A DNA stretch of 64,000 bases from Bacteroidales bacterium (GTDB taxonomy: Bacteria > Bacteroidota > Bacteroidia > Bacteroidales > WCHB1-69). The notes beneath the pieces were generated by a model. That model was not told where the DNA came from. It saw only the letters and a program-made list of their open reading frames with translations, and searched no databases. This document shows positions 16,564 through 33,138 of the stretch, piece by piece. A program made the position numbers and the translations under genes. The first letter of the stretch is position 1. Each line of letters begins with the position of its first letter. The stretch lies in NCBI GenBank assembly GCA_017395245.1, contig JAFPVR010000091.1:17072-81071 (forward strand), in the 5' to 3' direction.

Positions 16564-16614
16564 ATCAGCGTCTTGCATTGTCCCAACAGTTTTTCGCGCC
16601 CCGTAGTATTTTTG
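16564..16614 (+). promoter_or_regulatory. Phage promoter motif copy 1 (ATCAGCGTCTTGCATTGTCCCAAC-N19-TATTTTTG)
   Basis: Shares a 24-bp identical block with 22866-22889, at a fixed 19-nt distance from the -7 box. Confidence 0.55.
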
Positions 16615-16636
16615 CGGCCGAAAAACTTTACAGACG

Positions 16637-17728
16637 ATGACAAGACAATTTCTGAATATCACCCAGCTCTCGGCCAACAAGGCCCGTATCGAAATCGACG
16701 GCACCATCGGCGGCTTCGACTGGGACACCTGGAAACGGAAGAACACCGGCGCCGGCATCCGGAAGCAGCTCAAGGAGATCGACAACCTGAAGGTTGACGA
16801 GATCGAGGTGCTCATCACCTCTTTGGGGGGCATCGTGGATGAAGCGTTGCAGATCCACGACGCGCTGAAATCGCATCCGGCCAAAATAACCACTATCGTG
16901 CAAGGTTACTGCGCCAGCTCGGCCACCATCATTGCCTGTGCCGGCGACCGTCGCATCATCTCCCCCAACGCTTTGTATCTCATCCACAAGTGTTGGAGCA
17001 ACGTTGGGTACGCCAACGAAAATGACCTGGAAGCGGAGTTAGACGATCAGCGCACCGTTAACGGCACGATCTTCAACATCTACAAAGGGGTGCTGAAGAA
17101 AGACGAGGCCGACCTCCGCGCCCTGTTCGAAGCCAACGACGGCGACGGCAAGTGGATCACCGCCGAGGATGCCCTGGCTTTTGGCTTCGCCACCGAGATC
17201 CAGGAATTCGAGAACGAGAACAAAAAAACGGCAAGTGGAATGGCGCGGTTCCTGAACCGCGCCCGCGTCCTCTTCCCGGTTGTGAACAATATCCCTAACT
17301 ATAACCAAAACCCCACCGACATGAAGAAATTCCTGATGAGTTTCGCCATGCTGGGCGCACTCCTTTGCATGAAGGAGGATGCCGAGTATGACGAAAAGGA
17401 AGGTCTGAAGCTCAATCCCGAGCAGCTGCAGACCGTGGAGGATGCCTTGAAGGCCTACGATGGCCTCAAGACGAAAGCCTCCAAGACAGAGAGCGATCTT
17501 CAAGGCGCGAAGGATGCCTTGGCCACCGCCGAGAAATCCGTCGCAGACAAAGACGCCCTCATTGCCACCCTCACCGCCGAGCGCGACGACTACAAGGCCA
17601 AGTACGAGAACGCCCCCGCCAATGTGCCGGGCGTGAACGGAAAGGATGTGGAGCTGGATGAACAATCCATCGAGGACTACGTCAACAACAGTCCTGTGTA
17701 TCAAGAAATTTTCAAAGAAAACTTCTAA
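16637..17728 (+). CDS. ClpP-like (S14) prohead protease fused to a coiled-coil scaffold-like C-terminal region
   Basis: VLITSLGGIVDEALQIHDAL...GYCASSATIIACAGD...LYLIHKCW. Confidence 0.8.
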   Translation: MTRQFLNITQLSANKARIEIDGTIGGFDWDTWKRKNTGAGIRKQLKEIDNLKVDEIEVLITSLGGIVDEALQIHDALKSHPAKITTIVQGYCASSATIIACAGDRRIISPNALYLIHKCWSNVGYANENDLEAELDDQRTVNGTIFNIYKGVLKKDEADLRALFEANDGDGKWITAEDALAFGFATEIQEFENENKKTASGMARFLNRARVLFPVVNNIPNYNQNPTDMKKFLMSFAMLGALLCMKEDAEYDEKEGLKLNPEQLQTVEDALKAYDGLKTKASKTESDLQGAKDALATAEKSVADKDALIATLTAERDDYKAKYENAPANVPGVNGKDVELDEQSIEDYVNNSPVYQEIFKENF

Positions 17729-17731
17729 GCC

Positions 17732-18826
17732 ATGCCCGAAACCAACATAAACACTGATCTTATCGTAGAAGAATACGGTCGGATCTATCAGCAGAGAGGT
17801 CAGGGGCTCGACCGCATCAAACGCGCCCTGATCCAAAAGTCCGAGACTCTTGAAAAATATGCCATCCACAAGAGAATCACCGACGACATCTATGAGATGG
17901 CCAACGACGAGTTCCAGCCGGTGCTCCAGCCGTTCCGTGTCCCCTTCGAACCGACCGGCGGTGTGAAGTTCTACCCGAACCCCATCGTGCTCCAGCACAT
18001 CAAGGTGGATCTCAAGATTTCCCCCGACCAAATCATCGACGGTTGGCTCGGCTTCCTTGAAGGCAAAGGGGTCGATCGTTCCCAGTGGCCCATCACCCGT
18101 TATATGGTCGAAGTCTATCTGAAGCAGCAGATTGACTACGACCGTGAGGTGAACGCCGTTTACTACGGCGAGCGCGACGACAACGGAACCTCTCCGTCTT
18201 CCTGCATGGACGGCATCCGCAAGAAGCTCATCTTGGGTGCGCAGGACGACTATCCCATCAACGTCATCGATGGTGTCGGTGCGCTTCAGCCGGACACCTG
18301 CTTCGACCAAGTGGAGAATTTCTCCAAGAAGATCAAAGCCATCTATCGCGGCGTTCCGATGATCATCTGCGTATCTCAGGAATACGAACGCGCCTTCCTC
18401 GAGAACAAGCGTGCCAACGGTTTCTACTGGCTGCACGGTCCCGAGGATCTCAACGCCTCCGTCGATTTCACCAAGCAGGTGGTCATGGGCCTTCCGTGCA
18501 TGGACGACAGCACGGACATGTTCGCGTTTGTCAGAGGCAACCTCATGTGGTTGACCCGCAAGGACAAGTTCAACTTCGACATCCAGAAAGAAGACCGCTA
18601 CGTCAAAATCCTCGGCGACTGGCGCGAGGGTATCGGCTTCGGCGTGAACAAGATGGTGTGGGCCACCAAAGAGACTGTCACGACAACGACCTCCGGCGAC
18701 GGCCAAGGTAGCGGTCAAGGTAACGGCCAAGGCAACGACCAAGGTAACGGCCAAGGCGACGACTCTGGCGAAACCCAAGGCGACGACTCTGGCGAAACCC
18801 AAGGCGACGACCAGAACAACGGCTAA
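17732..18826 (+). CDS. Putative major capsid protein with a G/Q/D/N-rich repetitive C-terminal tail
   Basis: Position immediately after the protease/scaffold gene. 364 aa. C-terminus SGDGQGSGQGNGQGNDQGNGQGDDSGETQGDDSGETQGDDQNNG. Confidence 0.6.
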   Translation: MPETNINTDLIVEEYGRIYQQRGQGLDRIKRALIQKSETLEKYAIHKRITDDIYEMANDEFQPVLQPFRVPFEPTGGVKFYPNPIVLQHIKVDLKISPDQIIDGWLGFLEGKGVDRSQWPITRYMVEVYLKQQIDYDREVNAVYYGERDDNGTSPSSCMDGIRKKLILGAQDDYPINVIDGVGALQPDTCFDQVENFSKKIKAIYRGVPMIICVSQEYERAFLENKRANGFYWLHGPEDLNASVDFTKQVVMGLPCMDDSTDMFAFVRGNLMWLTRKDKFNFDIQKEDRYVKILGDWREGIGFGVNKMVWATKETVTTTTSGDGQGSGQGNGQGNDQGNGQGDDSGETQGDDSGETQGDDQNNG

Positions 18827-18828
18827 GC

Positions 18829-18884
18829 ACAGGGAACGGGCGCGGGGTGATGGCATATCCGTTGCACCGCGCCGCCCTGTTTTC
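18829..18884 (+). terminator. GC-rich hairpin plus T-run after the capsid gene
   Basis: ACAGGGAACGGGCGCGG...CCGCGCCGCCCTGTTTT. Confidence 0.55.
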
Positions 18885-18922
18885 AATCATTCATTATTCA
18901 ATCACTTAAAAACTGAAAAATC

Positions 18923-19534
18923 ATGCCTGAAGAAAATACCAACCAGTGTCCCGCGTGCCTCGAAGACCTGGCACGTCCCACCACCTGTGAACAGGTCATG
19001 GGCGGTGTTGTAACCGAATTCCTGTTGGGCTTGAAGGAAGATGTGGCCACTTGGCCGAAAAAGAAGGACGCAGCCCTGCGTACCTCCATGGCCGACCATG
19101 TAGAAACTCAACCATCCTCGAAGCTCACCATGAAGCCCGGAAAACGCCTGTTCAAAATCAGCGCAAAGAAAGGGTCATCTGAACTCAAGTACGAGCTCCA
19201 AGGCGAGAGCGGTTCCAAATCGTACAAAGCCTCTTTGGAGAACAACATTCCCGGTCTCCGCGCAAAAGCGCTCGGACTGCTGGCCGCCGTTTCCAACCAG
19301 GAACTGGTGATTCTCCCCAAGACCAAATCTGGCGATGTCCATCTGCTCGGCGACGAGTCGGAGGGTGCGGAACTCGAATCCGCCAGCGCCGTTTCCGGCA
19401 AGACCGGCACAGACGCCAACGGCGCCGATGTGGTCTTCTCCACCGACGTGCCCGCCCCCACCATCTATATGGGCGACAACTGGGACGAGCTGCAGGTGCC
19501 CGCCGGCGAGTCCGATGACAACGACGGCGAATAG
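18923..19534 (+). CDS. Putative virion structural protein
   Basis: ORF in the late operon; acidic C-terminus. Confidence 0.4.
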   Translation: MPEENTNQCPACLEDLARPTTCEQVMGGVVTEFLLGLKEDVATWPKKKDAALRTSMADHVETQPSSKLTMKPGKRLFKISAKKGSSELKYELQGESGSKSYKASLENNIPGLRAKALGLLAAVSNQELVILPKTKSGDVHLLGDESEGAELESASAVSGKTGTDANGADVVFSTDVPAPTIYMGDNWDELQVPAGESDDNDGE

Positions 19535-19587
19535 CCACGTTTTTTTTCTCTCTCAACCATATTGGTAATAGTATTTCATTTGTTTGG

Positions 19588-19618
19588 AAAGAGCTTCCTC
19601 TCCCGGGAAGCTCTTTTT
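19588..19618 (+). terminator. Rho-independent terminator
   Basis: AAAGAGCTTCC-loop-GGAAGCTCTTT followed by TT. Confidence 0.6.
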
Positions 19619-19640
19619 CGAACGGCAATCAACTCCTGAC

Positions 19641-20507
19641 ATGAACGATATACAACAATGGCTCGACAATCCCGGCCACGACTACTCCGCCGGCGTCACC
19701 CTCTTCGCCCGTTACAGCAAGAACAGGGCGCTGGTGCGCTATTTCCAATCCGGAACCGCCCGGTTCCGGATGGGGAAACTGGTTTACGAGATGGGGAAAC
19801 TGGTGAAGACGACACCATCGGCGAAACGCATCGTAGAGACGCAAAATTTTGCGTCTCTACAACCACAGCAATCGGAACGGCCTCGTGTAACATCCGAGGT
19901 TACTTCCGAGGTTACTTCCGAGGTTACTTCCGAGGTTACTTCCGAGGTTTCTCTTCCGAGGTTTATCCTCGATGCCAAGAAGGAGGTGGCCTCCCTCTAC
20001 ACCCTCATCGACAAACGGCACCGGGAACTGTACGACCTGGGCACCTCCAATGCCGATGACGTGGTGCGCAAACGGAAGAAGATCCTCGACGGGCGCAAGC
20101 CCGCCATCGATCGTGCCGACCGCCTCTACCGACTGAAGGAGGCGTGGATCAAGCTGGAAGACGGCCCCGCCCGGGAACGGGTGGCCAGCGATATCCGGGA
20201 GTTGCTGGCCGCACCATGGAAGGAGCAGCCGACGATGGTCGCACCCGTAGAGACGCGCCATGGCACGTCTCTACGATCCGACGTGTCCGGGTTGTCCGAC
20301 CTTAACCTCACCAATCGCCGCTCCGCCCTCCGTTCCTCCATCACCAAGGCTCAGAACATGCTGCAGTACCAGACCATCCGCAAGGGAGACTCCCCTACCC
20401 CGATGCCGCCCGGACCGAAACGCGACGAGTATGAACGGAAACTGGCCGCGCTGAAGGCGGAGCTGACAGCCGTGTGTGACGAGCTGGAAAGGAGGAAACC
20501 GGCATGA
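19641..20507 (+). CDS. Hypothetical protein carrying two REP palindromes and two tandem repeats in frame
   Basis: ATG at 19641. The peptide contains IVETQNFASLQ, (TSEV)x5 and PVETRHGTSLR. Confidence 0.5.
   Translation: MNDIQQWLDNPGHDYSAGVTLFARYSKNRALVRYFQSGTARFRMGKLVYEMGKLVKTTPSAKRIVETQNFASLQPQQSERPRVTSEVTSEVTSEVTSEVTSEVSLPRFILDAKKEVASLYTLIDKRHRELYDLGTSNADDVVRKRKKILDGRKPAIDRADRLYRLKEAWIKLEDGPARERVASDIRELLAAPWKEQPTMVAPVETRHGTSLRSDVSGLSDLNLTNRRSALRSSITKAQNMLQYQTIRKGDSPTPMPPGPKRDEYERKLAALKAELTAVCDELERRKPA
19833..19860. repeat. REP-like palindrome copy 3 (perfect 28-bp GTAGAGACGCAAAATTTTGCGTCTCTAC)
   Basis: Read directly in the sequence; lies inside a CDS. Confidence 0.9.
19893..19966. repeat. 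12-bp tandem repeat (TCCGAGGTTACT) x5-6
   Basis: Encodes the TSEV repeats. Confidence 0.9.
20247..20274. repeat. REP-like palindrome copy 4 (GTAGAGACGCGCCATGGCACGTCTCTAC)
   Basis: Inside a CDS. It is the reverse complement of copy 5. Confidence 0.9.
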
Positions 20508-21103
20508 GTGCGACCCGTGTGCCAGTGCCATTCCGCGACCGGCAGCGTGATGACGACCTCACGGTCTATGAGGAAGTTTCCTTGGCCGTGGCCGACGGCA
20601 GAAGCGAGCAGCTGAACGAACGGCAGCAGGCGGTCCTGGAGCGCACCAAGGCCGCCTACCGCATTATCTGCGACCTGCCCGACAAACGGAAGGCCGTGAA
20701 CAAACTGAAAGAGCTCTATCCGGAGTTGAGCGAGATGACGCTGTATCGCGACATCAACTACGCCATCCGCATCTGGAACCCGATGAACCGCATGGACCGG
20801 GATTTCCTCACCACCGCATTCCTCAACAAGCTCATCTCGGAAGTCTACAACGATGGATGCGACGCGGCCACCCGCGCCAAGAACCTGGCCACCTTCGAAC
20901 GCTACCTTTCCAACATGCCACAAGACCCGATGGATCCCACCATCATGGAGAAGCACACCATCAACATCCAGCTCAACATCAACGGCAGCACCATCACCGT
21001 GCCCGCCGACAAATGGGCGAAGATCAAAGAAAACAAACTCATCGCCGCCGCTTTGGATCAGGAGATCAGCGAGGCGCAGGCTGCGGATATTATGGAAAGT
21101 TAA
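20504..21103 (+). CDS. Possible terminase small subunit
   Basis: Assigned only by its position directly upstream of TerL, with a coupled start. Confidence 0.35.
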   Translation: MSATRVPVPFRDRQRDDDLTVYEEVSLAVADGRSEQLNERQQAVLERTKAAYRIICDLPDKRKAVNKLKELYPELSEMTLYRDINYAIRIWNPMNRMDRDFLTTAFLNKLISEVYNDGCDAATRAKNLATFERYLSNMPQDPMDPTIMEKHTINIQLNINGSTITVPADKWAKIKENKLIAAALDQEISEAQAADIMES

Positions 21104-21106
21104 TCT

Positions 21107-22825
21107 ATGAACCTCTCCGTTTCCGCCACCAAATCCCAAATCCTTGGGCTGATGCTCTGCCCCAAGTACCACGTCTCCGTCGAGGGGCGCGGTACCGGCA
21201 AGAGCTTCGACATCGGCTTCACCATGGATAAGATCGTGCGGGCGATGCCCCGGTCGATCACGTCCATCACCGGCAAGACTTACGGCCAGCTGCTCACCAA
21301 CACCCTGCCGTCGTCACTCAAGCTGCTCGGCAAGATGGGCTACGTGAAGGACGGCAACTTCGTAGTGTGCAAACGTCCGCCCTCTTGGTTCAAGAGCCCC
21401 TACGAGCAGATCAACCGCTACGACAACATCATCAGCTTCAGCAATGGTGCCTGCTTCGCTCTGGTGAGCCAGAGCGAGAAAGGCAGCGGCCGTGGTAAGA
21501 ACATCGACTTCGAGATCATGGACGAAGCCCTTACCATCAACAAGGAGCAGTACGACTACGAGGTGTCGCCCGCCAACCGTGGCAACAACGAGTATTTCGG
21601 TCCCCGCAGCGCCAACCCGGTGAGCTTCCACCACGGCTTCAAGTACTCCACCTCCATGCCGCCCACCAAGGCCGGCCGCTGGATCCTGGACTACGCCAAA
21701 TACTACGAAGAGGAAAAGGGCATCAACCTGTTCAGCGTGTGGAACCGCATCGTGAAGATGCAGATCGAGCTGCTGAAGCTGACGGATCCGCGTCAGTTCG
21801 CCGATGCCTGGAACGAGATCATCCGCCTCAAGCACAAGATACAGCCGTTCCTCAGTCGGGAAGGACTGCTGTTCACCTGCAGCAACGCTTTCGACAATCT
21901 GGAGAACCTCGGTCTATCCTACATCCGGCGGGAGTACCAGAAGCAACCCTACCTCACCTTCCTCATCGAGGTGATGAACTACCTGTTCGACAAAGTGGAG
22001 GACTGCTTCTACAGCATCAACGAGGAAAAGCAGATCTACTATGCTTCCGACCAAAGCAAGATGATTATGGAAATGGCCAGGGAGACCAACTTCGACTACA
22101 AGCCGGAAGATATCCTTGGTTCCTCGATATACGACCGCGACTGCAACCCGTCCGTTCCCTTGGAGATTGTACCGGACTGGGGCTCGGCCATCTGTCTCTT
22201 CAGTGTGAGCCAGACCCGGAACTTCGACTTCGTGTCCGGACTGACCACCCAGCAGGAAGTCCACAACATCATCAACGAGTTCTTTGTGAAGCCCGACGGA
22301 AACAGCAACGTGCTCATCAAGGAGCTGTGCGCCAAGTTTAGCGATCACTACCGCAAGCACACCAACCGCGAGCTGCACTACTACAAAGACAAATACGGCG
22401 ACAGCCGCAACCCCAACATCGTGAAGTCGAAGACCTACAACCAGCTGGCCATAGAGTACCTGACCGCTGCGGGTTGGACGGTGATCGAGCACGAGCACCC
22501 GGGCATGGAACCGCCGCAGAGTGACAAGTACGTGCTCATCAACAGCATCCTGAAGGAGGACAATCCGGATTTGCCGCTCTTCCGCATCAACGGCACGCGC
22601 TGCCACTTCACCCTCATCTCAATGAACAACGCGATGGTGAAGGAGTACGACGGCCAGCTGAAGAAAGACAAGAGCAGCGAACGCAAGGGCAGCGGCGTCC
22701 TCCCAGAGGAGGCCACCCACTTCTCTGATGCTGTCGATAAGGTCCTGTGGACCAAGTACGGCATCCTCGTCAAGCGCGACGGCGGCGACTTCGTTCCGGT
22801 GCGGATCGGCGGGAGGGTGCTGTAG
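21107..22825 (+). CDS. Terminase large subunit
   Basis: Walker A-like VEGRGTGKSF and Walker B NIDFEIMDEA. 572 aa. Confidence 0.75.
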   Translation: MNLSVSATKSQILGLMLCPKYHVSVEGRGTGKSFDIGFTMDKIVRAMPRSITSITGKTYGQLLTNTLPSSLKLLGKMGYVKDGNFVVCKRPPSWFKSPYEQINRYDNIISFSNGACFALVSQSEKGSGRGKNIDFEIMDEALTINKEQYDYEVSPANRGNNEYFGPRSANPVSFHHGFKYSTSMPPTKAGRWILDYAKYYEEEKGINLFSVWNRIVKMQIELLKLTDPRQFADAWNEIIRLKHKIQPFLSREGLLFTCSNAFDNLENLGLSYIRREYQKQPYLTFLIEVMNYLFDKVEDCFYSINEEKQIYYASDQSKMIMEMARETNFDYKPEDILGSSIYDRDCNPSVPLEIVPDWGSAICLFSVSQTRNFDFVSGLTTQQEVHNIINEFFVKPDGNSNVLIKELCAKFSDHYRKHTNRELHYYKDKYGDSRNPNIVKSKTYNQLAIEYLTAAGWTVIEHEHPGMEPPQSDKYVLINSILKEDNPDLPLFRINGTRCHFTLISMNNAMVKEYDGQLKKDKSSERKGSGVLPEEATHFSDAVDKVLWTKYGILVKRDGGDFVPVRIGGRVL

Positions 22826-22865
22826 AATCCGCAAATTTGCGCCTGTACAAAATTCCATATTGATT

Positions 22866-22916
22866 ATCAGCGTCTTGCATTGTCCCAACGGGTTTCTTCG
22901 TGTGGTTGTACTTTTG
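22866..22916 (+). promoter_or_regulatory. Phage promoter motif copy 2 (ATCAGCGTCTTGCATTGTCCCAAC-N19-TACTTTTG)
   Basis: See copy 1. Confidence 0.55.
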
Positions 22917-22944
22917 CCGCAAAAAACTACACGAAGCGACAAAT

Positions 22945-23568
22945 ATGACAAACGATGCGTTGAACCTCGGACTGCTGCCGGTGGATGAAACCGGTGCTTA
23001 CAACCTGCCAGTGGTGGGTACTGATGCCGTGCCAACTGCAGACAGCCTCATTCCGTTCAACCGGGCGAAGACCTGCCTGAGACGGGATGTGGGCGTACAC
23101 TTCTTCATCGATGACTACCAGTTCGAGCGGGTGTGGAAATCTCCGCAGCTCTATGTGGAGATGCTGAAGCGGTACCGTTTTGTCTGCGCCCCGGATTTCA
23201 GTCTCTACTTGGACATGCCGATGGCGGCCAAGATTTGGAACGTCTATCGCAGCCGCCTTATCACTGCCTACTGGCAGAAGCAGGGGGTGAAGGTGGTGCC
23301 CGTGTTGCAGTGGGCGGATCCTGCCACGTGGGAGTTCTGCTTTAAGGGCGTTACGCCAGGTGGAACGGTGGCTGTGAGCACATTAGGTGCGGCTCGCAAC
23401 AAACTGACCAAACAGATCTGGAAATCGGGGATGTCGGAGGCCATCCAGAAACTGCGTCCTGCCGCCATACTCCTGTATGGCAGACCTATCAACTTCAATT
23501 TTGGAAATATCCATGTTGTATGTTACACTAACGAGGTGTTGGAAAGGAGGTCTGGTCATGGGCGGTAG
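22945..23568 (+). CDS. DUF4417-like protein
   Basis: VHFFIDDYQFERVWKSPQLYVEMLKRYRFVCAPDFSLYLDMPMAAKIWNVYRSRLITAYWQKQGVKVVP. Confidence 0.6.
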   Translation: MTNDALNLGLLPVDETGAYNLPVVGTDAVPTADSLIPFNRAKTCLRRDVGVHFFIDDYQFERVWKSPQLYVEMLKRYRFVCAPDFSLYLDMPMAAKIWNVYRSRLITAYWQKQGVKVVPVLQWADPATWEFCFKGVTPGGTVAVSTLGAARNKLTKQIWKSGMSEAIQKLRPAAILLYGRPINFNFGNIHVVCYTNEVLERRSGHGR

Positions 23569-24034
23569 AGGTGGATATTTGGGCGGGTCGAGTTCTGGTA
23601 CAGGAGACTCTTCAATTGGCTTCAAAAAGACATACGAAAGTGATAACGGAGGCACCGTTTATACGGAAAAATCAAGAATTGAGCAATCCAATATAAACAA
23701 GCAGGAAAAAGCCAAATATGAAAAGGAGCATGATATGTGCAAACATTTGGCTGACAATGGGCATGATATAGTTCATCTTGATGACAGAAATCTATCGGAA
23801 GGCTCATACGATATATTGCTCGATGGAGAAAAGGCGGAGTTGAAGAGTATGAAAGGTACAACGAATATAGGCAGGGAAGGCAAAGATGCTATACGTAAAC
23901 AAAAGGCCGATTTTGTAGTGTTTAAATTCGAGAGCTTTTCTGCAAAAACAAATAGAGAAATCGAAAAATTAGTAAAGAACAACATACATGGATGCTATTA
24001 TGTTGAGGGGCAAAAAGGATTGGAATGGTTTTAA
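23558..24034 (+). CDS. Putative PD-(D/E)XK-like nuclease with a Gly-rich N-terminus (low GC)
   Basis: ...HDIVHLDD...YDILLDGEKAELKS... fits a D-x(n)-E-x-K arrangement. GGAAAGGAGG lies upstream of the ATG. Confidence 0.35.
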   Translation: MGGRGGYLGGSSSGTGDSSIGFKKTYESDNGGTVYTEKSRIEQSNINKQEKAKYEKEHDMCKHLADNGHDIVHLDDRNLSEGSYDILLDGEKAELKSMKGTTNIGREGKDAIRKQKADFVVFKFESFSAKTNREIEKLVKNNIHGCYYVEGQKGLEWF

Positions 24035-24162: not shown

Positions 24163-24546
24163 ATGGAATTGGAAATCGAACTAAAAAGCAAATACATGAA
24201 TCGCTTCAAACAGGAGTTTAACCGTGCCTGCCTGCAAATAGGGATTCCAGCATTGAGCGAGGATACCTGTGCCAAAATATTGGCGGTGGTATATCTCCAC
24301 GACAACGAGCAGTTCGCGTTCAGCGGCGCATTTGCTGCTGATATGGAGTACATTCAGAACCGCTATCACATACATGGCGCTGGAACACCGGAGGCCGACT
24401 TTGTGGACAAGGTGGTGCGTTACATCCACGAGCTGGAGGAATATGCCAGAACGCATGTGGAGGAATCCACGCAAAACGGTCTGTTCCCTGCCAAGCCACA
24501 ATGGGCAATCGAGATGTTTAGAAATATGTACGGAATAAGAATATAA
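24163..24546 (+). CDS. Hypothetical protein (low-GC island)
   Basis: ORF only. Confidence 0.45.
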   Translation: MELEIELKSKYMNRFKQEFNRACLQIGIPALSEDTCAKILAVVYLHDNEQFAFSGAFAADMEYIQNRYHIHGAGTPEADFVDKVVRYIHELEEYARTHVEESTQNGLFPAKPQWAIEMFRNMYGIRI

Positions 24547-24549
24547 GTC

Positions 24550-24900
24550 ATGGGCAGGAAAGAATACTCTTCGTGGTTTCGATGGACAGAGGAACGCTTG
24601 CGTTTTCTATATGAAAACTTTGCCAGTAATTCCAACCAAAGCATCGCGGACGCACTAGGCTGCAAAAAAAAATGCGTCATCGATAAGGCTCACAAATTGA
24701 GGTTGAAAAAGGACAATGATTATTTAGTCATGGCTCATGCACATGCTGGAATCCGTTATGGAATAAAGGGATGTAATCTTTCGGAAGATGCATTGTCCAG
24801 AAGAAAACAAACCAGGCAGAAAACCGTACATATTGAAAAAATAAGATTAAAATACGGTATTCATCAAAGGACAAATCTCAAATTAAAAAACATTTACTGA
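24550..24900 (+). CDS. Putative HTH DNA-binding protein (low-GC island)
   Basis: WTEERLRFLYENFASNSNQSIADALGCKKKCVIDKAHKLRL looks like a Myb/GcrA-type HTH. Confidence 0.4.
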   Translation: MGRKEYSSWFRWTEERLRFLYENFASNSNQSIADALGCKKKCVIDKAHKLRLKKDNDYLVMAHAHAGIRYGIKGCNLSEDALSRRKQTRQKTVHIEKIRLKYGIHQRTNLKLKNIY

Positions 24901-24901
24901 T

Positions 24902-25783
24902 ATGATTTACGGATATTTGCGTGTGTCGTCCGACGAGCAGGACGTAAACAGCCAGAAGCAGGGCGTTGAGGCTTTCGCGAAGGAGCATGGATGGACTATT
25001 GACGAATACATCTCTGATGAAGGCGTTAGCGGTGGCAAAGATCCCGACAAACGGAATCTCGGTCCGTTGCTGAAGAAATTGAAAAACAATGATGTTCTTA
25101 TTGCAGCAGAGATCAGCCGTTTGGGTCGTGACCTGTACATGGTAATGGACATCCTGCACTTCTGCATGGAGCGCGGCTGTGTAATCCACACTGTCAAAGA
25201 TCGATTCACATTGGGGGATGATATCCAGAGCAAAGTACTTGCTTTTGCTTTCGGATTGGCCGCTGAGATTGAACGTCAGATGATTCGTCAACGCACTCGT
25301 GAAGGTTTGAGATTAAGAATGAAAATGGGAGTACTGTTAGGTCGTCCTATTGGTTCTCCGAACAGTTTGGAAGCACAAAAATACGGTGAATGGAAGGACA
25401 AACTTAAACAAATGGTGGAATGGCAGATGGGACCGAGGCAAATAGCTAATGTTATTGGGTGTGACAGGAACACGGTGAACCGTCTTGTTGAAAGATGGGG
25501 TTACGACGAGCTGTGGAAATATAGAGCCAATTATGCCAAAAACGAAAAAGAGTATAGGGCTAAGCACCGTGTTCCAACGTACAAAGACGAACCTTATAAG
25601 ATAGTGCCGTTAGACCGAAAAAAGACAATTACTTGCATAGAAGCAGGCTTAACATTGCCGCAAATCGCAGAGCAAATGCCTGAGTTCTCGTATGAGCAGG
25701 TATATGATACGGTTCTTTGTGACAGTGAATTAAACACTCTCTATCGCCAGCACGCTCAAAAGAAGCTGGTGAAGAAGAAGTAA
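24902..25783 (+). CDS. Serine recombinase (resolvase/invertase family) with an extended C-terminus
   Basis: MIYGYLRVSSDEQ (catalytic Ser), ...ISRLGRD..., ...ERQMIRQRTREGL..., and HTH RQIANVIGCDRNTVNRL. Confidence 0.85.
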   Translation: MIYGYLRVSSDEQDVNSQKQGVEAFAKEHGWTIDEYISDEGVSGGKDPDKRNLGPLLKKLKNNDVLIAAEISRLGRDLYMVMDILHFCMERGCVIHTVKDRFTLGDDIQSKVLAFAFGLAAEIERQMIRQRTREGLRLRMKMGVLLGRPIGSPNSLEAQKYGEWKDKLKQMVEWQMGPRQIANVIGCDRNTVNRLVERWGYDELWKYRANYAKNEKEYRAKHRVPTYKDEPYKIVPLDRKKTITCIEAGLTLPQIAEQMPEFSYEQVYDTVLCDSELNTLYRQHAQKKLVKKK

Positions 25784-25967: not shown

Positions 25968-26003
25968 TGTCCCATCTCGTTATGTGCGCCCGTTGTATTT
26001 TTG
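25968..26003 (+). promoter_or_regulatory. Phage promoter motif copy 3 (TGTCCCATC-N19-TATTTTTG)
   Basis: Same spacing as copies 1, 2 and 4. Confidence 0.5.
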
Positions 26004-26019: not shown

Positions 26020-26298
26020 ATGGAACAGACAATCACCCGCGCCGACGTGCTGGCCGAGATGGAAAAACGGGAAACCGCCGACAACCGCCACCGCTACTTC
26101 GCCATCCAGTTCTACAAACAGAACGGCGAGTTAGTGACGCTTCCCCGTGCCCGCAGCTGCGGCCTCCGCATGGACATGACCGAAAACCGGATGCGCGGTG
26201 TGCAGCAGGTAGATGAGTTCGGCAACGCCGTCGGCCACATCTATCCCGTCTGTATCGACAATATCCGCACGTTCAACAATGTACGAGTAAAGATATAA
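26020..26298 (+). CDS. Hypothetical protein
   Basis: ORF; ATG at 26020. Confidence 0.5.
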   Translation: MEQTITRADVLAEMEKRETADNRHRYFAIQFYKQNGELVTLPRARSCGLRMDMTENRMRGVQQVDEFGNAVGHIYPVCIDNIRTFNNVRVKI

Positions 26299-27627: not shown

Positions 27628-27632
27628 CGACA

Positions 27633-28100
27633 ATGGAACCGAAATTATTCACATCCCAATTGAATGAGTACGCGGAGGAATTCAAGAGATATCTTCCCGT
27701 GAATATCAATCTGCGGTTCGAGACCGTGGCATCGCCACTGGCACTGTGCGAGGAAACATACCTCCGTCCGCTGTTTGGCAAAGCATTGTTCAACCGCATG
27801 GCCACCTACGTGAAAGACCACCCCACGCTGGACAGTGGAGATTCTGATTGCACCCTCATCGAAAAGACACGGTTCGCCCTCATCCGGTTAGCCGTCTGGA
27901 AAGACTACGACATCATTGCGGCCAACATCAGCGACACCGGTGTCTCTGCAGAGGTGGACAAAGAAAACCGCCTCTTCCGCTATCAGGAGGAGAACCTTAA
28001 ACGTGCCCTCAAGGAGGAAGGCTTTAACTATCTGGACAACATCCTGGAATTCCTTGAAGAAAATTCCCAAGAATTTCCGGAGTTCGAGCAGTCGGGATAG
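27633..28100 (+). CDS. Hypothetical head-completion/connector protein
   Basis: Position only. Confidence 0.4.
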   Translation: MEPKLFTSQLNEYAEEFKRYLPVNINLRFETVASPLALCEETYLRPLFGKALFNRMATYVKDHPTLDSGDSDCTLIEKTRFALIRLAVWKDYDIIAANISDTGVSAEVDKENRLFRYQEENLKRALKEEGFNYLDNILEFLEENSQEFPEFEQSG

Positions 28101-28625
28101 GTGTTGGAAAGCTCACAGTTGCTAATCCGTAACACCCGGATGTTCAACACCTATTATAATATAGACAACAGCCGCTTAGTGTTCCTGAAGATGCGTCACT
28201 ACATCCGCGATGTGGAACTTATCGAGCTGCAGCACCGCATCGGCAGGGAGTTCTACCAGGAGCTGCTCACCGCCGATGAGAGCCTGCCGAAGTACGAGGC
28301 CATCCTTTCGTACATCCGCAATTACATCGTGTATGCCTCCGTGGCCGAAGGCATCGGCGAGCTGCACAAGATGCCCACCGATAAAGGCTTGCTGTTCGAG
28401 ACCACCACTATGGACGGTGTGCAGGAGGCTCCGGTCTATCGTGCCCAGATTGCGGAAACCCGCCTTCGTTTCGCCCAGCGTGCCGAACAGTACCTGGCCA
28501 CCGCCCTCCACATCATCCGGAACGCGCCTGCAGACTATCCCGCATACGTCGGTTTCGCTGGCGACAGCCCTGAAGACGGCATTATCCACCGCGACAACAC
28601 CAACCGCAAAATCTTCCTCGCCTGA
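28101..28625 (+). CDS. Hypothetical head-completion/connector protein (GTG start; alternative ATG at 28140)
   Basis: Position only. Confidence 0.4.
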   Translation: MLESSQLLIRNTRMFNTYYNIDNSRLVFLKMRHYIRDVELIELQHRIGREFYQELLTADESLPKYEAILSYIRNYIVYASVAEGIGELHKMPTDKGLLFETTTMDGVQEAPVYRAQIAETRLRFAQRAEQYLATALHIIRNAPADYPAYVGFAGDSPEDGIIHRDNTNRKIFLA

Positions 28626-28628
28626 TCT

Positions 28629-28656
28629 ATAACCAATAACCAATAACCCATAACCT
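28629..28656 (+). repeat. ATAACCN heptad array B (4 units)
   Basis: ATAACCA ATAACCA ATAACCC ATAACCT, ending 6 nt before ATG 28663. Confidence 0.9.
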
Positions 28657-28662
28657 TTGATC

Positions 28663-29013
28663 ATGGACATCGTAACATTAATCGGCTACCTTATCACTCC
28701 GCTCACCGGGGCAATAGGCTGGATCTTCGGTCGCCGCCAGCGCCGGAATACCGCCATCCAGTCCCTGCAGAAAACCATCCAACTGCTCTCCAACACCATC
28801 CAAGACGACAATCAGAAGATTGTTAGCCTTATGAATGAAATTCAGGAGGTGCGCCGCGAGAATGCCGAACTCAAAGCCGGACAGAAGGAGCTGCTGGGCC
28901 AGATAGAGGCACTGAAAAGTGAGAACCGGGAGCTTAACGAACTTATCAGGGCAAACGGCATCAAGAAAGTGAAGCCCGCAATGCGGAAGGATTGGAAAGG
29001 AGACGCAGAATGA
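28663..29013 (+). CDS. Membrane-anchored coiled-coil protein (possible holin or lysis accessory protein)
   Basis: N-terminal TM IVTLIGYLITPLTGAIGWIF followed by heptad-rich sequence. Directly upstream of the endolysin. Confidence 0.35.
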   Translation: MDIVTLIGYLITPLTGAIGWIFGRRQRRNTAIQSLQKTIQLLSNTIQDDNQKIVSLMNEIQEVRRENAELKAGQKELLGQIEALKSENRELNELIRANGIKKVKPAMRKDWKGDAE

Positions 29014-29678
29014 ACGTAATCCGACACAATTTCCCCGCCACGCAATATGTGTGTGAGCGCACCGAGAAACGGCAGATCGTTCTTCATCACACCGCCAGTG
29101 GTCCGGGCGTGGACGGCGATATTGCCTGGTGGATGAAAACCCCGGAGCGGGTGGCCACCCACTTCATCGTCGATCGAGAGGGCAAGGTTCACCAACTCTT
29201 CGATGAGGAGTTCTGGGGCTACCACCTCGGACTGGCTCAGAAGGTCTTCACCCAGATGAAGCTGCCCTACAAGCAGCTCGACCGTCAGAGCATCGGCATT
29301 GAGATCGACAGCTGGGGTTATCTGGAACCGCACACCGACGGCCAGTTCTATCCGGCCAAGTGGAATGGCAGCCGCAGCGTGCCCAATACCGCCGCCAAGC
29401 CGGTGAAGTACTTCTACGAGTACTGCTCCAACCAAAAATGGAAGGGCCACCGCTACTACGAAAAGTACACCACCGCCCAGATCAATGCCGTGCGCGACCT
29501 GGTGCGCGAGCTGTGTACCCGTCACAACATCCCGAAGACCTACAATCCGGATATGTGGGAACTGTCAAAACGTGCCCTCACCGGCACGCCCGGCATCTTC
29601 GCCCACTGCTCCTACCGCACCGACAAAAGCGATATCCACCCGCAACCCGAAATGATTGACATGTTGAAGGCCTTATGA
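29010..29678 (+). CDS. N-acetylmuramoyl-L-alanine amidase (endolysin, Amidase_2/PGRP type)
   Basis: IVLHHTASG...THFIVDREGKVHQL...SIGIEIDSWG. Confidence 0.85.
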   Translation: MNVIRHNFPATQYVCERTEKRQIVLHHTASGPGVDGDIAWWMKTPERVATHFIVDREGKVHQLFDEEFWGYHLGLAQKVFTQMKLPYKQLDRQSIGIEIDSWGYLEPHTDGQFYPAKWNGSRSVPNTAAKPVKYFYEYCSNQKWKGHRYYEKYTTAQINAVRDLVRELCTRHNIPKTYNPDMWELSKRALTGTPGIFAHCSYRTDKSDIHPQPEMIDMLKAL

Positions 29679-30145
29679 CATCAAGCCAATATTACCAGTA
29701 CATTGAAGGCCTCGCCCGCTCACACAAGATGGTGAGGCACTCCGACACCGACAAACACTTCTTCCGGGGCGAGCTGGAGGAGTTCTATATGGATCTGCGC
29801 AACAAGGTGAAGTTCCCCGCCATGATTGCTGAAAGCTGGGAGATCACGTTCCAGGAGGAAAACAAGAAGCGCGAAACCTCCTTCATCATCGCGGCAGCAT
29901 ACAAGGAGAGTAAGAACTGGGGCAACATCTACGCTGCTATCGACCTCTGCGAGCGCATCGGCGATGAGTTCCTGCGCCGTATCATCGCCGATGTCGATGA
30001 GGGCAAGTTCTGCGGCGACGTGGAACTGATGTCGGCCATCCCCATGGTGGATGAACAGCACCTCTATGCCGGTGTGCGCTACACCATCCAGATGTCGTGC
30101 CCGTTCCGTCCTGACCCGGATAAGGATGAATGGACGGATCTGTAG
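29675..30145 (+). CDS. Hypothetical structural protein
   Basis: ORF. Its stop codon lies inside REP copy 5. Confidence 0.45.
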   Translation: MTSSQYYQYIEGLARSHKMVRHSDTDKHFFRGELEEFYMDLRNKVKFPAMIAESWEITFQEENKKRETSFIIAAAYKESKNWGNIYAAIDLCERIGDEFLRRIIADVDEGKFCGDVELMSAIPMVDEQHLYAGVRYTIQMSCPFRPDPDKDEWTDL

Positions 30146-30169
30146 AGACGTGCCATGGCGCGTCTCTAC
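30142..30169. repeat. REP-like palindrome copy 5 (GTAGAGACGTGCCATGGCGCGTCTCTAC)
   Basis: Supplies the TAG stop (30143-30145) of the upstream CDS. Confidence 0.9.
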
Positions 30170-30193
30170 AACGACAGAACCCAATGAACCGAT

Positions 30194-31000
30194 ATGAACA
30201 CCTTGACCTACGAAATTGACGGCCAGAAGACCGACCTGACGTTCCCGTCCTCGATTGCCGAGTGTAGCGGGTCGCAGCTCACCGCCGTGGCCTCCGCCCG
30301 GATGGGGCTGCTCACCGATGAGGAACTACTCGTGCGGCTGTGCGGCATCCCAATCGAGGTGGTGGAGGCCATGTCACCGTTCCAGCGGTTTAAGATCGTG
30401 GAGGCCACCGAGCCGGTCATCCACTTCGAGGGCAACGAGCTGCTGTGGAAAAAGTGGAAATTTCCGACCGTGGAAATCGGTGGTGAAACCTTCTACGGCC
30501 CTGAAGACAGTTTCGGCAACATCACCTGGGGCGAGTTCATCTACGCCGACCAGTGCATGATCCAAGGACTCTACCAGGCCGCCATCGCCGCGATGTTCCG
30601 TCCGGAGCGTCCGGGCTGGGATGGCGAGACAGAGCGCCGCCAGCCCTTCACCGTTCCCGGTACCACGCACCGCTTTCCCAAGTTCGGCGACATGGACGGC
30701 GCACTGGCCACCGCCATCGTGTGGAACTATCGCGCCGTGCGATCCGCCGCCGTCGATGCTGCCTATCCCGCGCTCTTCCCCTACTTCGACCCCAACGCCA
30801 AGCCAGAAAAAGACGATGAGGAAGATGAACCCGAAACCAAGGATGAGCCCACCGAATTCTCCTGGATCAACGTCCACCGCAACATCCTCGGCGAGCACAT
30901 CCAGGATGAGGACAAATTCCTGAACCTCCCTATGCACACCGTCCTCTATCGCCTCAACACCGTGGCCAACGAATCCCGCAAATCCAAACAAAAAACATAA
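30194..31000 (+). CDS. Hypothetical structural protein with an acidic segment
   Basis: ORF only. Confidence 0.45.
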   Translation: MNTLTYEIDGQKTDLTFPSSIAECSGSQLTAVASARMGLLTDEELLVRLCGIPIEVVEAMSPFQRFKIVEATEPVIHFEGNELLWKKWKFPTVEIGGETFYGPEDSFGNITWGEFIYADQCMIQGLYQAAIAAMFRPERPGWDGETERRQPFTVPGTTHRFPKFGDMDGALATAIVWNYRAVRSAAVDAAYPALFPYFDPNAKPEKDDEEDEPETKDEPTEFSWINVHRNILGEHIQDEDKFLNLPMHTVLYRLNTVANESRKSKQKT

Positions 31001-31078
31001 TTCCAAAAAGGGCTGAAAGCCCGACCTATGTCAACCTAGGGTGAGCGATAGCGAGCCCTAGGACAAAACAGATAGAAT

Positions 31079-31603
31079 ATGGCAGACGAACATCTCATGA
31101 CCGACGACGAATTCCTGCGCCAGGCAAAAGCCTGGGCCGACCGCGTGCGTGCGCAGAGCAAGGCCGCCGCATCCGCCTTCACCAAGGGCAAGAAAAGCGC
31201 AACGCACACCTACAAGACCGGGCGTTATGCCGGCAAGACCGAAGGACGGCTGCGGTCCAAGGTGGGTTACGTACTCCGGAAACGCTACGGGGATCTGGAG
31301 GCCGTGAGTTTCAAGATGCCTGTGCACGGAATCTTCCGCGAGTATGGCGTGGGCAACGGGCAGCCCCGCCACGGAGTGGCCACCAAGAGCGGCAAAGCGG
31401 CCTCCAACAAAATCTATATCAAGCGCACCCCCAGCGACTGGTTCCACAACCCCTTGGAGCGCAACATCGACGCTCTCGGCGACCTCGTGGCCGACTATTA
31501 CGGCGACAAAGTGCTGGTGGAGTTCATGAAGTTGGACACCAACACGACCAACACCGCAAGCCACGAAGGAGTGTTTGCAAAAAAAAGTAAACCCAATGGT
31601 TGA
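31079..31603 (+). CDS. Hypothetical head-tail joining-type protein
   Basis: Position only. Confidence 0.4.
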   Translation: MADEHLMTDDEFLRQAKAWADRVRAQSKAAASAFTKGKKSATHTYKTGRYAGKTEGRLRSKVGYVLRKRYGDLEAVSFKMPVHGIFREYGVGNGQPRHGVATKSGKAASNKIYIKRTPSDWFHNPLERNIDALGDLVADYYGDKVLVEFMKLDTNTTNTASHEGVFAKKSKPNG

Positions 31604-31620
31604 CTGTTTAGAAAAAAGTG

Positions 31621-31628
31621 TATTTTTG
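31621..31628 (+). promoter_or_regulatory. -7 box (TATTTTTG) of the moron promoter
   Basis: TATTTTTGCCGAAAA, lacking the TGTCCCAAC box. Confidence 0.45.
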
Positions 31629-31644
31629 CCGAAAATTTCATGCG

Positions 31645-32187
31645 GTGAAAGTTGACAGCAATCCGATAGTGGAAAACCGACTGTACGCCTTCAGGTTTGA
31701 TGGCGATGATGGCAACATTTACGATGTCACTATGGAACAGCTGTATGACAGGGAATGGCTATGGAATTTCTTCAACGAACACAAACAAGACCTTGGATAT
31801 TTTCATGTATCAGATATCTATGATGCCATTGAACGTACCATAGATGATTTGGATCTGATTGACGATTTGCTGCTGGACGGAACGACTGATCTGGACACAT
31901 ATTTCCGGGATTTGTCCCAAAACTATAAGGATCCGTATCTTGAACGGAGCAAAGGCAAGCTGTCACATTTGCCAGAAGTGCGTCAGAACAGCTGGGTACG
32001 GTTCTACTCTATTCGGTTAGAGAGCGGAATCTATGTGCTTACAGGTGGCACCATCAAGCTGACTGAGAATATGGCAGAGCGGGAGCACACCTTGCGTGAG
32101 GCGAACCGTTTGGAACAATGCAGGGATTATTTGATTGGACAAGGAGTTTGCGATTTCTGCGGCTTCAGTGAATTTTTGTGCGAATAA
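31645..32187 (+). CDS. RelE/ParE-superfamily (HigB/Gp49-like) toxin candidate with an N-terminal extension (GTG start inferred)
   Basis: C-terminal [47 protein letters not shown] resembles Bacteroidales RelE-like toxins. Confidence 0.5.
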
Positions 32188-32200
32188 ACATTATGGAATT

Positions 32201-32620
32201 ATGAATACATTGGAAAAACTGAAACAAATCAGCGAGCCCGCCCATTCCAATTGGAGAGAGAAGGCGCAATGGAGGAAAGACAACCGCGACTGGCTGCGGA
32301 AGTCCGGCCGGATTGCGGTCGCCGTGCTGGAGGCTATCGATGCAAACCCGGACATGAGCCAGGCGAAACTGGCCGAGAAGATGGGAGTGACGAAACAATA
32401 CATCAGCAAAATCGTGAAAGGACAGGAGAACCTGTCCCTGCAGACCATCTGCAAGTTGGAGTCAGCACTGGGGATCACGCTGGTTGAAGTACAGATTCCA
32501 CAGGCATCTCAAATGGCCACACCTGTTGAATACTGCCAGCATCAGTGGCTTACCTCAAAGCAGATTCTCATGGAGATGACATCTGCTATTGCTTATTCAG
32601 AATCATATCAAGTTGCATAG
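32201..32620 (+). CDS. XRE-family HTH antitoxin candidate with a ~45 aa C-terminal extension
   Basis: [42 protein letters not shown]. Confidence 0.7.
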
Positions 32621-32622
32621 CG

Positions 32623-33045
32623 ATGAAACAGATTAGTTTTCTTATGAGACAGATAAGGGTTAACCAGTTCGCCATTCTGTCTGACGATGCGCCCAACGGA
32701 GAAATCCCCGTTGAATTTGGCGTTCAATTCAAGACCGATACGGTTGGAAAATGGATCGCGGTTGCCTTCAAGACGCAATATATGAACGGTTCCGCACCCA
32801 TGTTGTTGTTGGAAATCCAATGTGATTTTCAGGTGAAGCCGGAAGACTGGGATTCCCTTGTCAACGACGGGAAACTGGTGTTTCCTATCGAATTTCTGCG
32901 CCATATAGCCCTGCACACGGTTGGCTCGGCTCGCGGAATCCTTTTCTGCAAGACCGAAGGTTCTCCGTTCAGCAGATTCATCCTGCCCCCTGTTAATCTC
33001 GAAACTATGATTAGTCAGGATTTGGAGATTCCGTTGCCTGAATAA
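32623..33045 (+). CDS. SecB-like chaperone candidate
   Basis: Aligned by eye to E. coli SecB: FILPPVNLETMI against LNLAPVNFDALF, plus preceding beta-strand-like segments. 140 aa. Confidence 0.45.
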   Translation: MKQISFLMRQIRVNQFAILSDDAPNGEIPVEFGVQFKTDTVGKWIAVAFKTQYMNGSAPMLLLEIQCDFQVKPEDWDSLVNDGKLVFPIEFLRHIALHTVGSARGILFCKTEGSPFSRFILPPVNLETMISQDLEIPLPE

Positions 33046-33072
33046 CCAACGGACGATATAAGCCCCCCTACC

Positions 33073-33103
33073 ACGGCCTCCCATCCTGGAGACCGTTTTT
33101 TTT
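33073..33103 (+). terminator. Rho-independent terminator closing the moron
   Basis: ACGGCCTCC-loop-GGAGACCGT followed by a T8 run. Confidence 0.65.
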
Positions 33104-33138
33104 GTCCCAACCCGTTCTCGCAAACGGGTTTATTTTTG
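33103..33138 (+). promoter_or_regulatory. Phage promoter motif copy 4 (TGTCCCAAC-N19-TATTTTTG)
   Basis: Same spacing as the other copies. Upstream of the tail operon. Confidence 0.55.

Follow-up and report, generated by a model that had tools for sequence, protein, structure and literature searches.

A phage-specific class of putative late promoters in a Bacteroidales prophage, and a candidate activator encoded beside the first of them

This study concerns a stretch of 64,000 nucleotides (nt) from a rumen Bacteroidales bacterium (GTDB lineage Bacteria; Bacteroidota; Bacteroidia; Bacteroidales; WCHB1-69; GenBank assembly GCA_017395245.1, contig JAFPVR010000091.1, positions 17,072 to 81,071 of the forward strand), hereafter called the window, to which all coordinates refer. 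Roughly 5.3 to 50.3 kb of the window is occupied by a temperate siphovirus-like prophage of ~45 kb, for which no near-identical annotated phage was found. The late genes of this prophage are headed by five copies of a composite element that pairs a short upstream box, TGTCCCA, with the -7 element of Bacteroidota promoters. Immediately upstream of the first copy lies an open reading frame (ORF), ORF 15485-16072, whose product is our candidate for the protein that would read the box.

Five boxed sites in the prophage

The composite TGTCCC-N22-TAnnTTTG occurs five times in the window, always on the + strand, against an expectation of 0.00 (0 of 100 dinucleotide-preserving shuffles contained any match). 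The first-pass annotation of this DNA had listed four copies, each with the 9-mer TGTCCCA(A/T)C exactly 19 nt before TAnnTTTG. All four lie where it placed them, but a fifth is present at 37307-37342, and the conserved unit proved to be TGTCCCA at 22 nt from TA and not the 9-mer, the last two bases of which vary among relatives. By itself, the 9-mer is only weakly enriched (4 copies versus 1.19 expected, with at least 4 in 6 of 100 shuffles). The -7 element TAnnTTTG is exact at all five sites and is followed by C at each, as in the sigma-A promoters of Bacteroidota. The canonical -33 TTTG, on the other hand, is missing: at every site, the tetranucleotide whose last base is 19 nt ahead of the -7 element is CAAC, CATC, or CAAG, and TGTCCCA lies three bases further upstream, which bears out the earlier suggestion that the box stands in place of the -33 element. 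At four of the five sites a start codon follows 16 to 29 nt after the -7 element.

The box is not a general companion of -7 elements in the window. As had been claimed, it is absent from the -7 boxes of rpsA and the Xaa-His dipeptidase gene, from the early promoter at 6077, and from the moron promoter at 31621, and it is likewise absent from the promoter of ORF 15485 itself at 15421; no host promoter in the window carries it. A relaxed scan of the window (NGTCYY, spacer of 21 to 23 nt, one mismatch allowed in the -7 box) gave no further convincing site. One near-match on the minus strand, at 25399-25434 (GGTCCCATC-N19-TAAGTTTG), falls within the resolvase gene, is followed by no gene, and is more probably a chance occurrence than an antisense promoter.

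Late promoter 1 (16564-16614, +) has its box TGTCCCA at 16579-16585 and its -7 element TATTTTTG at 16607-16614, followed by an ATG at 16637. It heads the protease/capsid-to-terminase operon, in which the ClpP-like prohead protease (16637, +) and the large terminase (21107, +) were recognized by Pfam. Late promoter 2 (22866-22916, +) has its box at 22881-22887, its -7 element TACTTTTG at 22909-22916, and a probable ATG at 22946, and it precedes a unit made up of the DUF4417 gene (22900, +; Pfam) and ORF 23477-24034; orthologous sites were found in loci L076, L080, L082, L083, and L146. These two promoters share the identical 24-bp block reported earlier, ATCAGCGTCTTGCATTGTCCCAAC. In addition, the upstream block of promoter 1, CAGCGTCTTGCAT, contains a box-like CGTCTT starting 10 bp before the box, and the same box-like CGTCTT stands 10 bp upstream of the box at promoter 2. 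The promoter 1 block is kept in L137, L146, L152, and L158. A perfect 9-bp inverted repeat at 16531-16556 (TAGTTGAAA N8 TTTCAACTA) overlaps the stop codon of ORF 16095 and lies ~22 nt upstream of the promoter 1 box.

Late promoter 3 (25968-26003, +; box TGTCCCA at 25968-25974, -7 element at 25996-26003) precedes a small ORF (26020-26298), the portal gene (26302, +; assigned by similarity to the annotated portals of the phages Leef_1 and Ingeline_1), the genes for two DUF6712 proteins, an amidase gene (28992, +; Pfam), and further ORFs to 31603. Late promoter 4 (33103-33138, +; box at 33103-33109, -7 element at 33131-33138) precedes a 61-amino-acid (aa) Cys-rich ORF (33158-33343) and a 1,315-aa ORF (33580-37527, +) that we read as the tape measure on the basis of its match to the annotated tape-measure gene of phage 6H. 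This promoter comes directly after a terminator-like hairpin (33075-33094) and T run, and orthologous sites exist in L074, L079, L132, L140, and L148. Its spacer is itself an 8-bp perfect inverted repeat, 33109-33130 (AACCCGTT ctcgca AACGGGTT), followed by TATTTTTG. The spacer repeat also resembles an intrinsic terminator, and the stem recurs with a different loop in L079 and L132. Late promoter 5 (37307-37342, +; TGTCCCAAG...TACTTTTG), the copy added here, has its box TGTCCCA at 37307-37313 and its -7 element TACTTTTG at 37335-37342. It falls within the last 220 nt of ORF 33580-37527, 235 nt before ORF 37578, and the ORFs from 37578 on are presumably distal tail genes.

The remainder of the prophage is organized as follows. 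A CI-type helix-turn-helix (HTH) repressor (5596-6060, -; Pfam) faces the divergent early promoter, whose -7 box at 6077 lacks the late box. A Tad2-like (Thoeris anti-defense 2) early gene (9941-10381; Pfam E = 2e-25) and a DnaG-type primase fusion (11748-15008; Pfam) lie further along. At the far end, an integrase found by domain scan (49018-50136, -) adjoins a tRNA-Met gene. That tRNA-Met (50261-50333, -), just beyond the integrase, is the likely prophage attachment site; a second tRNA gene (Lys) is present at 3056-3129. A moron-like insert (31618-33045) separates ORF 31079-31603 from late promoter 4. This insert has its own canonical promoter (-7 box at 31621) and includes an HTH_3 protein (32135-32620); most relatives lack it, but L132 has it.

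Conservation and distribution of the box

Relatives of the portal were taken from rumen Bacteroidales metagenome-assembled genomes and from IMG/VR. When these were searched for GTCCC with the spacer varied by ±2 nt, a single spacing was found, on the gene strand only, and nearly all sites were intergenic. Among 40 non-redundant sites, TGTCCC is followed by A in 38 and TTTG by C in 39, with an A-rich stretch 5 to 8 nt further on. At the -33-equivalent positions of the same 40 sites, the first base is C throughout, and 38 sites have A as the second. An alignment (A5) of 10 orthologous portal-operon promoters, taken from phages whose portals are ~50 to 87% identical, shows TGTCCCA and TA..TTTGC to be invariant, together with two A's just after TA..TTTGC upstream of the start codon, while the spacer and the upstream flank have diverged. 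The intragenic site 5 follows the same pattern, as both elements and their spacing are kept in L075/L076, L080, and L048 despite different encoded residues between them. Many of the sites in relatives come directly after a terminator-like hairpin and T run. The inverted half-site GGGACA appeared sporadically, at few sites and at variable distances, and is no general feature of these promoters.

The box also occupies syntenic places in several relatives at a greater distance, and some lineages have variants of it. The variant TGTCCT is found in the human-gut phage MT835542 (two sites) and in L029, TGTCTT in L086-88, and GTTCCCAAC in L126 and L127, while L109 and L128 have a spacing of 21 instead of 22 nt. 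Taken together, these sequences would give the family a box consensus of TGTCYY.

The architecture reaches well beyond the rumen. The large terminase of the window is 24 to 29% identical to terminases of Flavobacteriia phages, and three cultured phages of that class carry comparable sites. Cellulophaga phage Ingeline_1 has five TGTCCTTTTAA (TGTCCT) sites, each 22 nt from a -7-like element and all on the gene strand, which precede its portal, tape-measure, virion-protein, head-protease, and terminase units. Polaribacter phage Leef_1 has four TGTCCT sites reading ATGTCCTTTTT, each directly after a T run and three with a clear hairpin terminator, which precede operons containing the portal, tape-measure, and head-protease genes and gp46. 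Flavobacterium phage 6H has two TGTCTT sites, one of them directly after gp40. A promoter architecture that is common to phages of two bacterial classes is therefore old.

Within this range, the element would seem to be confined to a single phage lineage. When the metagenome collection was scanned for exact matches to TGTCCCAAC-N19-TAnnTTTGCCG, 35 loci were obtained. In 18 of them, the late genes of the lineage follow immediately downstream, at syntenic positions. The other 17 represent ~10 distinct sequences without promoter-like context, which is about the chance level. Abundance of the box at non-promoter positions, which the first-pass annotation had named as counterevidence, was thus not seen for the strict variant scanned in the metagenomes. 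In IMG/VR, promoter-like matches fell mostly in the same phage lineage, and five loci (L012, L022, L023, L044, and L067) showed no detected similarity to the window proteins. At two of these, L012 (4886, -) and L023 (3381, -), the box is half of a palindrome (GGGACAAATGTCCCAAC or TGGACAAATGTCCCAAC) before the -7 box. An unrelated siphovirus, Bacteroides phage B40-8, has no box among its 78 -7 boxes. The sites are strand specific, stand at operon heads, and remain syntenic while their spacers diverge, and these comparisons support the view that they constitute a phage-specific class of late promoters.

A candidate activator and competing readings

Our preferred reading, to which we assign a probability of about 0.5, is that these are factor-dependent late promoters and that the factor is most likely the product of ORF 15485. 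Its parts are not equally secure. The five sites are very probably late promoters that depend on a factor, the factor that reads the box is probably encoded by the phage, and the identification of that factor with a protein of the ORF 15485 family, as a candidate activator, is a tentative step that could easily go the other way. We infer that transcription starts downstream of the sites and that the box is bound by protein.

Mechanistically, the promoters would keep the host sigma-A -7 element TAnnTTTGC and do without the -33 TTTG contact, which would be replaced by the asymmetric box TGTCCCA at about -40 to -34, fixed 22 nt from the -7 element. This numbering takes the G of TAnnTTTG to be near -5 or -6, as read from a flavobacterial start-site map for a related motif (PMC9723704). 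Unaided, the host RNA polymerase holoenzyme would perform poorly at such promoters, so that virion and lysis genes would be silent in the lysogen. After induction, a phage protein made from a box-less promoter would bind TGTCCCA and would supply the missing upstream contact, recruit or reshape the polymerase at the place that sigma region 4 usually occupies, or reshape sigma region 4 itself. The five late units, which we describe as terminator insulated, would then be switched on together. The most likely source of this protein would be ORF 15485-16072, which has a box-less promoter of its own and lies just ahead of late promoter 1.

ORF 15485-16072 (+) encodes a 195-aa basic protein of an uncharacterized family and has its own box-less -7 element, TATCTTTG, at 15421-15428. 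It has no Pfam, PHROG, or PDB-sequence match, and the members of its family are likewise without Pfam or PHROG assignment. Close homologs form a subfamily (A1), and weak profile matches in two other box-bearing loci led to a second (A2), which is related to the first (hhalign probability of 97%, E = 1e-10). An exhaustive profile search extended the family to 690 clusters of 160- to 220-aa proteins at E ≤ 0.001. Across alignments A1 to A4, members have ~160 to 215 aa, an N-terminal alpha/beta part (F75, G79, W80), and the C-terminal signature I..F....G..E..W..ESIRK...R. The family is basic (median isoelectric point [pI] of 9.1), two residues (G79 and R146) do not vary, and 97% of members have K or R at position 142; in the AlphaFold model, R146 and position 142 both lie on the long C-terminal helix. 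This model, built with a 74-sequence alignment (predicted local distance difference test [pLDDT] score of 90, predicted template modeling score of 0.78), consists of the N-terminal alpha/beta part and three long helices. Foldseek searches of the PDB with two AlphaFold models (pLDDT of 80 and 90) gave no match, none reaching E < 0.9 with the pLDDT-90 model. Against BFVD there was a single match, to an uncharacterized Leef_1 protein, gp39, which is a member of the family at E = 1.4e-19.

The gene order around the family is kept, running from primase through 0.4 to 1 kb of noncoding repeats to the candidate (with its own box-less -7 promoter), a partner gene, the ClpP protease, and the capsid. 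Wherever the sequence of a box-bearing relative covers the position just before the first late promoter, the family gene is present there, though weakly recognizable at the greatest distances. The 40 IMG/VR loci fetched via the family gene contain 39 copies of TGTCYY-N22-TAnnTTTG on the gene strand and 0 on the other. These copies fall in 27 of the loci, and many of the loci are near-duplicates. Among the cultured phages, 6H gp40 is a family member (hidden Markov model E = 3e-5, hhalign 75%) with a box immediately downstream, and 6H gp40 in turn has a weak relative (BLASTP 4e-4 over 172 aa) in Ingeline gp41, which lies right before the protease-operon box. In MT835542, a weak family homolog (hhalign 61%, E = 8e-5) is followed by a gene like ORF 16095. 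Apart from primase in some, no other nonstructural protein is common to the window prophage and the distant box-bearing phages. The first-pass annotation had named ORF 15485-16072 as one of two unassigned candidates, and it emerges from this comparison with added support: it is conserved, syntenic, and basic, and it co-occurs with the box out to the Flavobacteriia phages.

The two features that flank the candidate were also considered. The partner gene, ORF 16095-16544 (+; 149 aa), follows the candidate in all 40 IMG/VR loci and is possibly structural. It is less likely as a regulator, its family being neutral to acidic (median pI of 6.3); moreover, its only relative in Ingeline_1, a weak one, is itself box driven and heads a structural operon. 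On the other side, the primase terminator (15048-15065) and the candidate's promoter flank a dense repeat array (15012-15315), whose units are ~16 to 17 nt long, occur in both orientations, and have the form CCGAACTTTT(C/A)GAACC. The array is possibly an iteron-like origin or an operator region. In L086, a different repeat (GTTTCACTTTT) occupies the same position at 9600-9900.

Other possible regulators fared less well. Pfam scans covered ~50 chosen prophage ORFs (61 to 1,086 aa), among them nearly all of the large + strand ORFs; most shorter ORFs, ORF 33580-37527, and the + strand ORFs of 200 to 232 aa at 40224, 43509, and 45992 were outside these scans. No sigma-like domain was found in the scanned ORFs, and the downstream element is the host-type TAnnTTTGC, not the differing downstream element expected for a phage sigma factor with a promoter class of its own, such as SPO1 gp28 or phiEco32 gp36. 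Together, these two observations make a factor that works with host sigma-A likelier than a phage sigma. The earlier proposal of a dedicated late regulator, either an activator or a sigma-type factor, is partly supported: the comparisons favor a phage-specific class of late promoters, and an activator or a factor of the sigma-appropriation type is likelier than a phage sigma. The second candidate named at that stage, the HTH protein at 24550-24900, was rejected. It sits in a resolvase cassette (24163-25783) inserted between late units 2 and 3, and this HTH gene, ORF 24163, and the serine resolvase (24902-25783) all have no counterpart in the portal-fetched relatives that keep the box. In L088 and L152, ORF 24163 and the resolvase turn up at another location, which points to a mobile unit.

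Several points weigh against the preferred reading. Literature searches on the motif, on late promoters of Bacteroides prophages, and on the promoters of phage 6H brought up neither the motif nor the protein family. The co-occurrence of box and protein is confounded by shared ancestry, as all box-bearing phages also share the structural module, and an attempt to correlate box variants with protein subfamilies was unusable because a single phage (L106) carries both TGTCCT and TGTCTT. Of the 40 loci fetched via the family gene, 13 have no canonical box in the available sequence, although several of these have shifted or variant boxes. For the proteins of Ingeline_1 and MT835542, homology to the family is weak. 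The candidate has no recognizable DNA-binding fold. A replication protein could just as well lie beside the repeat array and the primase gene, and could equally carry the C-terminal QxxLF-like motif of the A1 subfamily.

This last motif deserves comment. In most A1 members, a poorly conserved, low-confidence tail leads up to a terminal QLxLF, QLxLPF, or QMALPL, while the window copy (16031-16072) reads HHLNLSF. The rest of the family lacks such a terminus (5 of 74 match). Bacterial sliding-clamp-binding peptides follow the consensus QL[S/D]LF or QxxLF (PMC12309361), and the A1 termini match it, which offers a lead toward putative clamp binding. Tethering to the clamp may link late transcription with DNA replication, as gp45, gp33, and gp55 do in T4. 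Extending this line of thought, the ORF 15485 family might form a new, fold-novel class of activators that redirects sigma-A polymerase to -33-less late promoters via TGTCYY, is common among temperate Bacteroidota siphoviruses of gut, rumen, freshwater, and marine habitats, and is perhaps clamp tethered in one subfamily, a proposal that we regard as speculative and somewhat doubtful.

Among the competing explanations, the one that survives best, although we consider it rather unlikely, keeps the promoter logic and changes the reader: the box would be recognized by a small or fast-evolving early protein or by a GerE/LuxR-type HTH protein, and ORF 15485 would be a replication or assembly protein. 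The location of ORF 15485 beside the array and the primase gene, the QxxLF-like motif in one of its subfamilies, and the lack of a known DNA-binding fold all suit this explanation. So does a set of homologous early proteins of ~190 aa in the cultured Flavobacteriia phages, namely, Leef_1 gp22 (L164, 19714-20301), Ingeline_1 gp18 (L165, 15323-15928), and 6H gp61 (L085, 44905-45462, -). Ingeline_1 gp18 and 6H gp61 match the C-terminal GerE/LuxR HTH domain, which resembles sigma region 4, and a GerE-type early regulator common to all three phages could be an alternative box binder there, which again counts against our candidate. No homolog of these proteins could be detected in the window prophage or in the other loci scanned (L001-L128), even at E < 1, and the box is far more widely conserved than any lineage-specific GerE-type regulator. 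The absence, bar primase in some, of any other nonstructural protein common to the window prophage and the distant box-bearing phages likewise speaks for ORF 15485.

It is improbable that a host factor reads the box, whether an alternative sigma factor or a stress-induced transcription factor common to Bacteroidota. Such a protein, if conserved, would explain simply why the same hexamer serves phages of rumen Bacteroidales and of marine Flavobacteriia hosts. The lack of a recognizable classical regulator in the phage is a further point in its favor. Yet the metagenome scan found no promoter-like copy outside the phage lineage. That scan addressed the strict variant (TGTCCCAAC...TTTGCCG) only, and a host regulon with a looser box remains compatible with it. 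There is also no boxed host promoter in the window, the Bacteroides-infecting phage B40-8 does without the box, and a constitutive host factor would express lysis genes in the lysogen.

Slightly less probable still is the explanation that no dedicated factor exists, the box being read by the host holoenzyme itself, for example through sigma region 4 or the alpha C-terminal domain, with timing set by something else, such as upstream read-through or genome copy number. It can point to a -7 element of perfect host type, with its TTTGC extension and an A-rich start region, and to the poor -33 elements of many Bacteroidota promoters, including several in the window. If the polymerase read the box directly, however, host genes should use it, and none was found to do so in the window or the metagenome scan; the late and lysis operons of the prophage would, moreover, be constitutively on. 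The strict retention of seven bases and an exact spacing across very distant phages implies a sequence-specific recognition that the sampled host promoters do not use.

Finally, we consider it very improbable that the repeats are not transcription signals at all but sites of module-boundary recombination, packaging, or some other structural use of DNA, since the 24-bp identity of copies 1 and 2, which could reflect recombination, and the location of the sites at module boundaries where the resolvase unit and the moron were inserted have to be set against an exact 21- to 22-nt register with a -7 element, a single orientation tens of nt before start codons and after terminators, and a site retained inside a coding region, all of which are hard to explain in that way.

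Significance and comparison with known systems

Almost nothing is known about the timing of late-gene expression in temperate phages of the Bacteroidota, a phylum that is dominant in gut and sea and has its own promoter grammar. A cis-element that extends from rumen prophages to cultured phages of Cellulophaga, Polaribacter, and Flavobacterium provides a signature for annotating late operons in this lineage and a candidate master late activator that is directly testable. The cultured Flavobacteriia relatives are available as experimental systems. If the preferred reading is correct for ORF 15485, a new protein family would join the ways in which phages reprogram a primary sigma factor. The pair of box and protein could then also serve as a tight, orthogonal activator-and-promoter part for Bacteroides engineering.

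The regulation proposed here follows a logic known from T4 MotA boxes, from pho boxes, and from other activators whose sites overlap the -35 region. At T4 middle promoters, a MotA box and the co-activator AsiA bring about sigma appropriation, in which a phage protein of ~200 aa works with the host primary sigma. The resemblance is at the sequence level: in both, the downstream element is of host type, an asymmetric box specific to the phage stands at a set distance in place of the upstream element, and many copies are scattered over the genome. The two differ in box sequence and in position (about -40 to -34 here versus a center near -30 in T4), in the host, which is a member of the Bacteroidota with -7/-33 promoters, and in the genes controlled, which are the late genes of a temperate phage and not the middle genes of a lytic one. 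No MotA or AsiA homolog was found by Pfam or PHROGs among the scanned ORFs or by fold search of the ORF 15485 model.

The C protein of phage Mu binds as a dimer to a dyad-symmetric site that overlaps the -35 region. Mu has four C-dependent late promoters (Plys, PI, PP, and Pmom) that serve lysis, head, and tail operons under one phage activator (PMC4461284). Here, too, a handful of late promoters heads the lysis, head, and tail operons of a temperate phage. The two differ in that the box here is one asymmetric hexamer or heptamer and the genomes are of unrelated types, and no scanned ORF matched the Mor/C family in Pfam.

PhoB, a response regulator, acts at pho boxes in which a TGTC-containing half-site replaces the -35 element and is arranged in tandem direct repeats. 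The TGTC at the -35 position would be a parallel, and the CGTCTT 10 bp upstream of the box at promoters 1 and 2 recalls the tandem repeats. Most sites, unlike pho boxes, have a single box without an upstream repeat, and no winged-helix or receiver domain was detected. Antitermination of the lambda Q type, in which a Q protein lets transcription from one constitutive late promoter pass downstream terminators, fits poorly: there are five separate promoters here, one of them in the window and many in relatives stand directly behind a terminator-like hairpin and T run, and no Q-family Pfam match was obtained.

Gram-positive temperate siphoviruses with RinA, ArpU, or Ltr need a small phage activator to express their late operon (packaging, morphogenesis, lysis), and the gene for it is found where the replication module gives way to the morphogenesis module (PMC3152322, PMC3753634). 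The gene for our candidate occupies a similar position. Those phages have essentially one late promoter, upstream of terS, unlike the five insulated units here, and no sequence or fold relationship of RinA, ArpU, or Ltr to the candidate was detected. The promoters also retain much of the canonical Bacteroidota sigma-A promoter, in which TAnnTTTG is the -7 box, as stated for flavobacteria (PMC9723704): they share its -7 element, the TTTGC extension, and the A-rich start region, and they depart from it at the -33 TTTG position, which reads C-A-A-C or similar.

In sum, the regulation would be functionally closest to that of the MotA-dependent middle promoters of T4 and the C-dependent late promoters of Mu. 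We take it to be a variation on a known kind of regulation, with a realistic chance that a new family of activators stands behind it.

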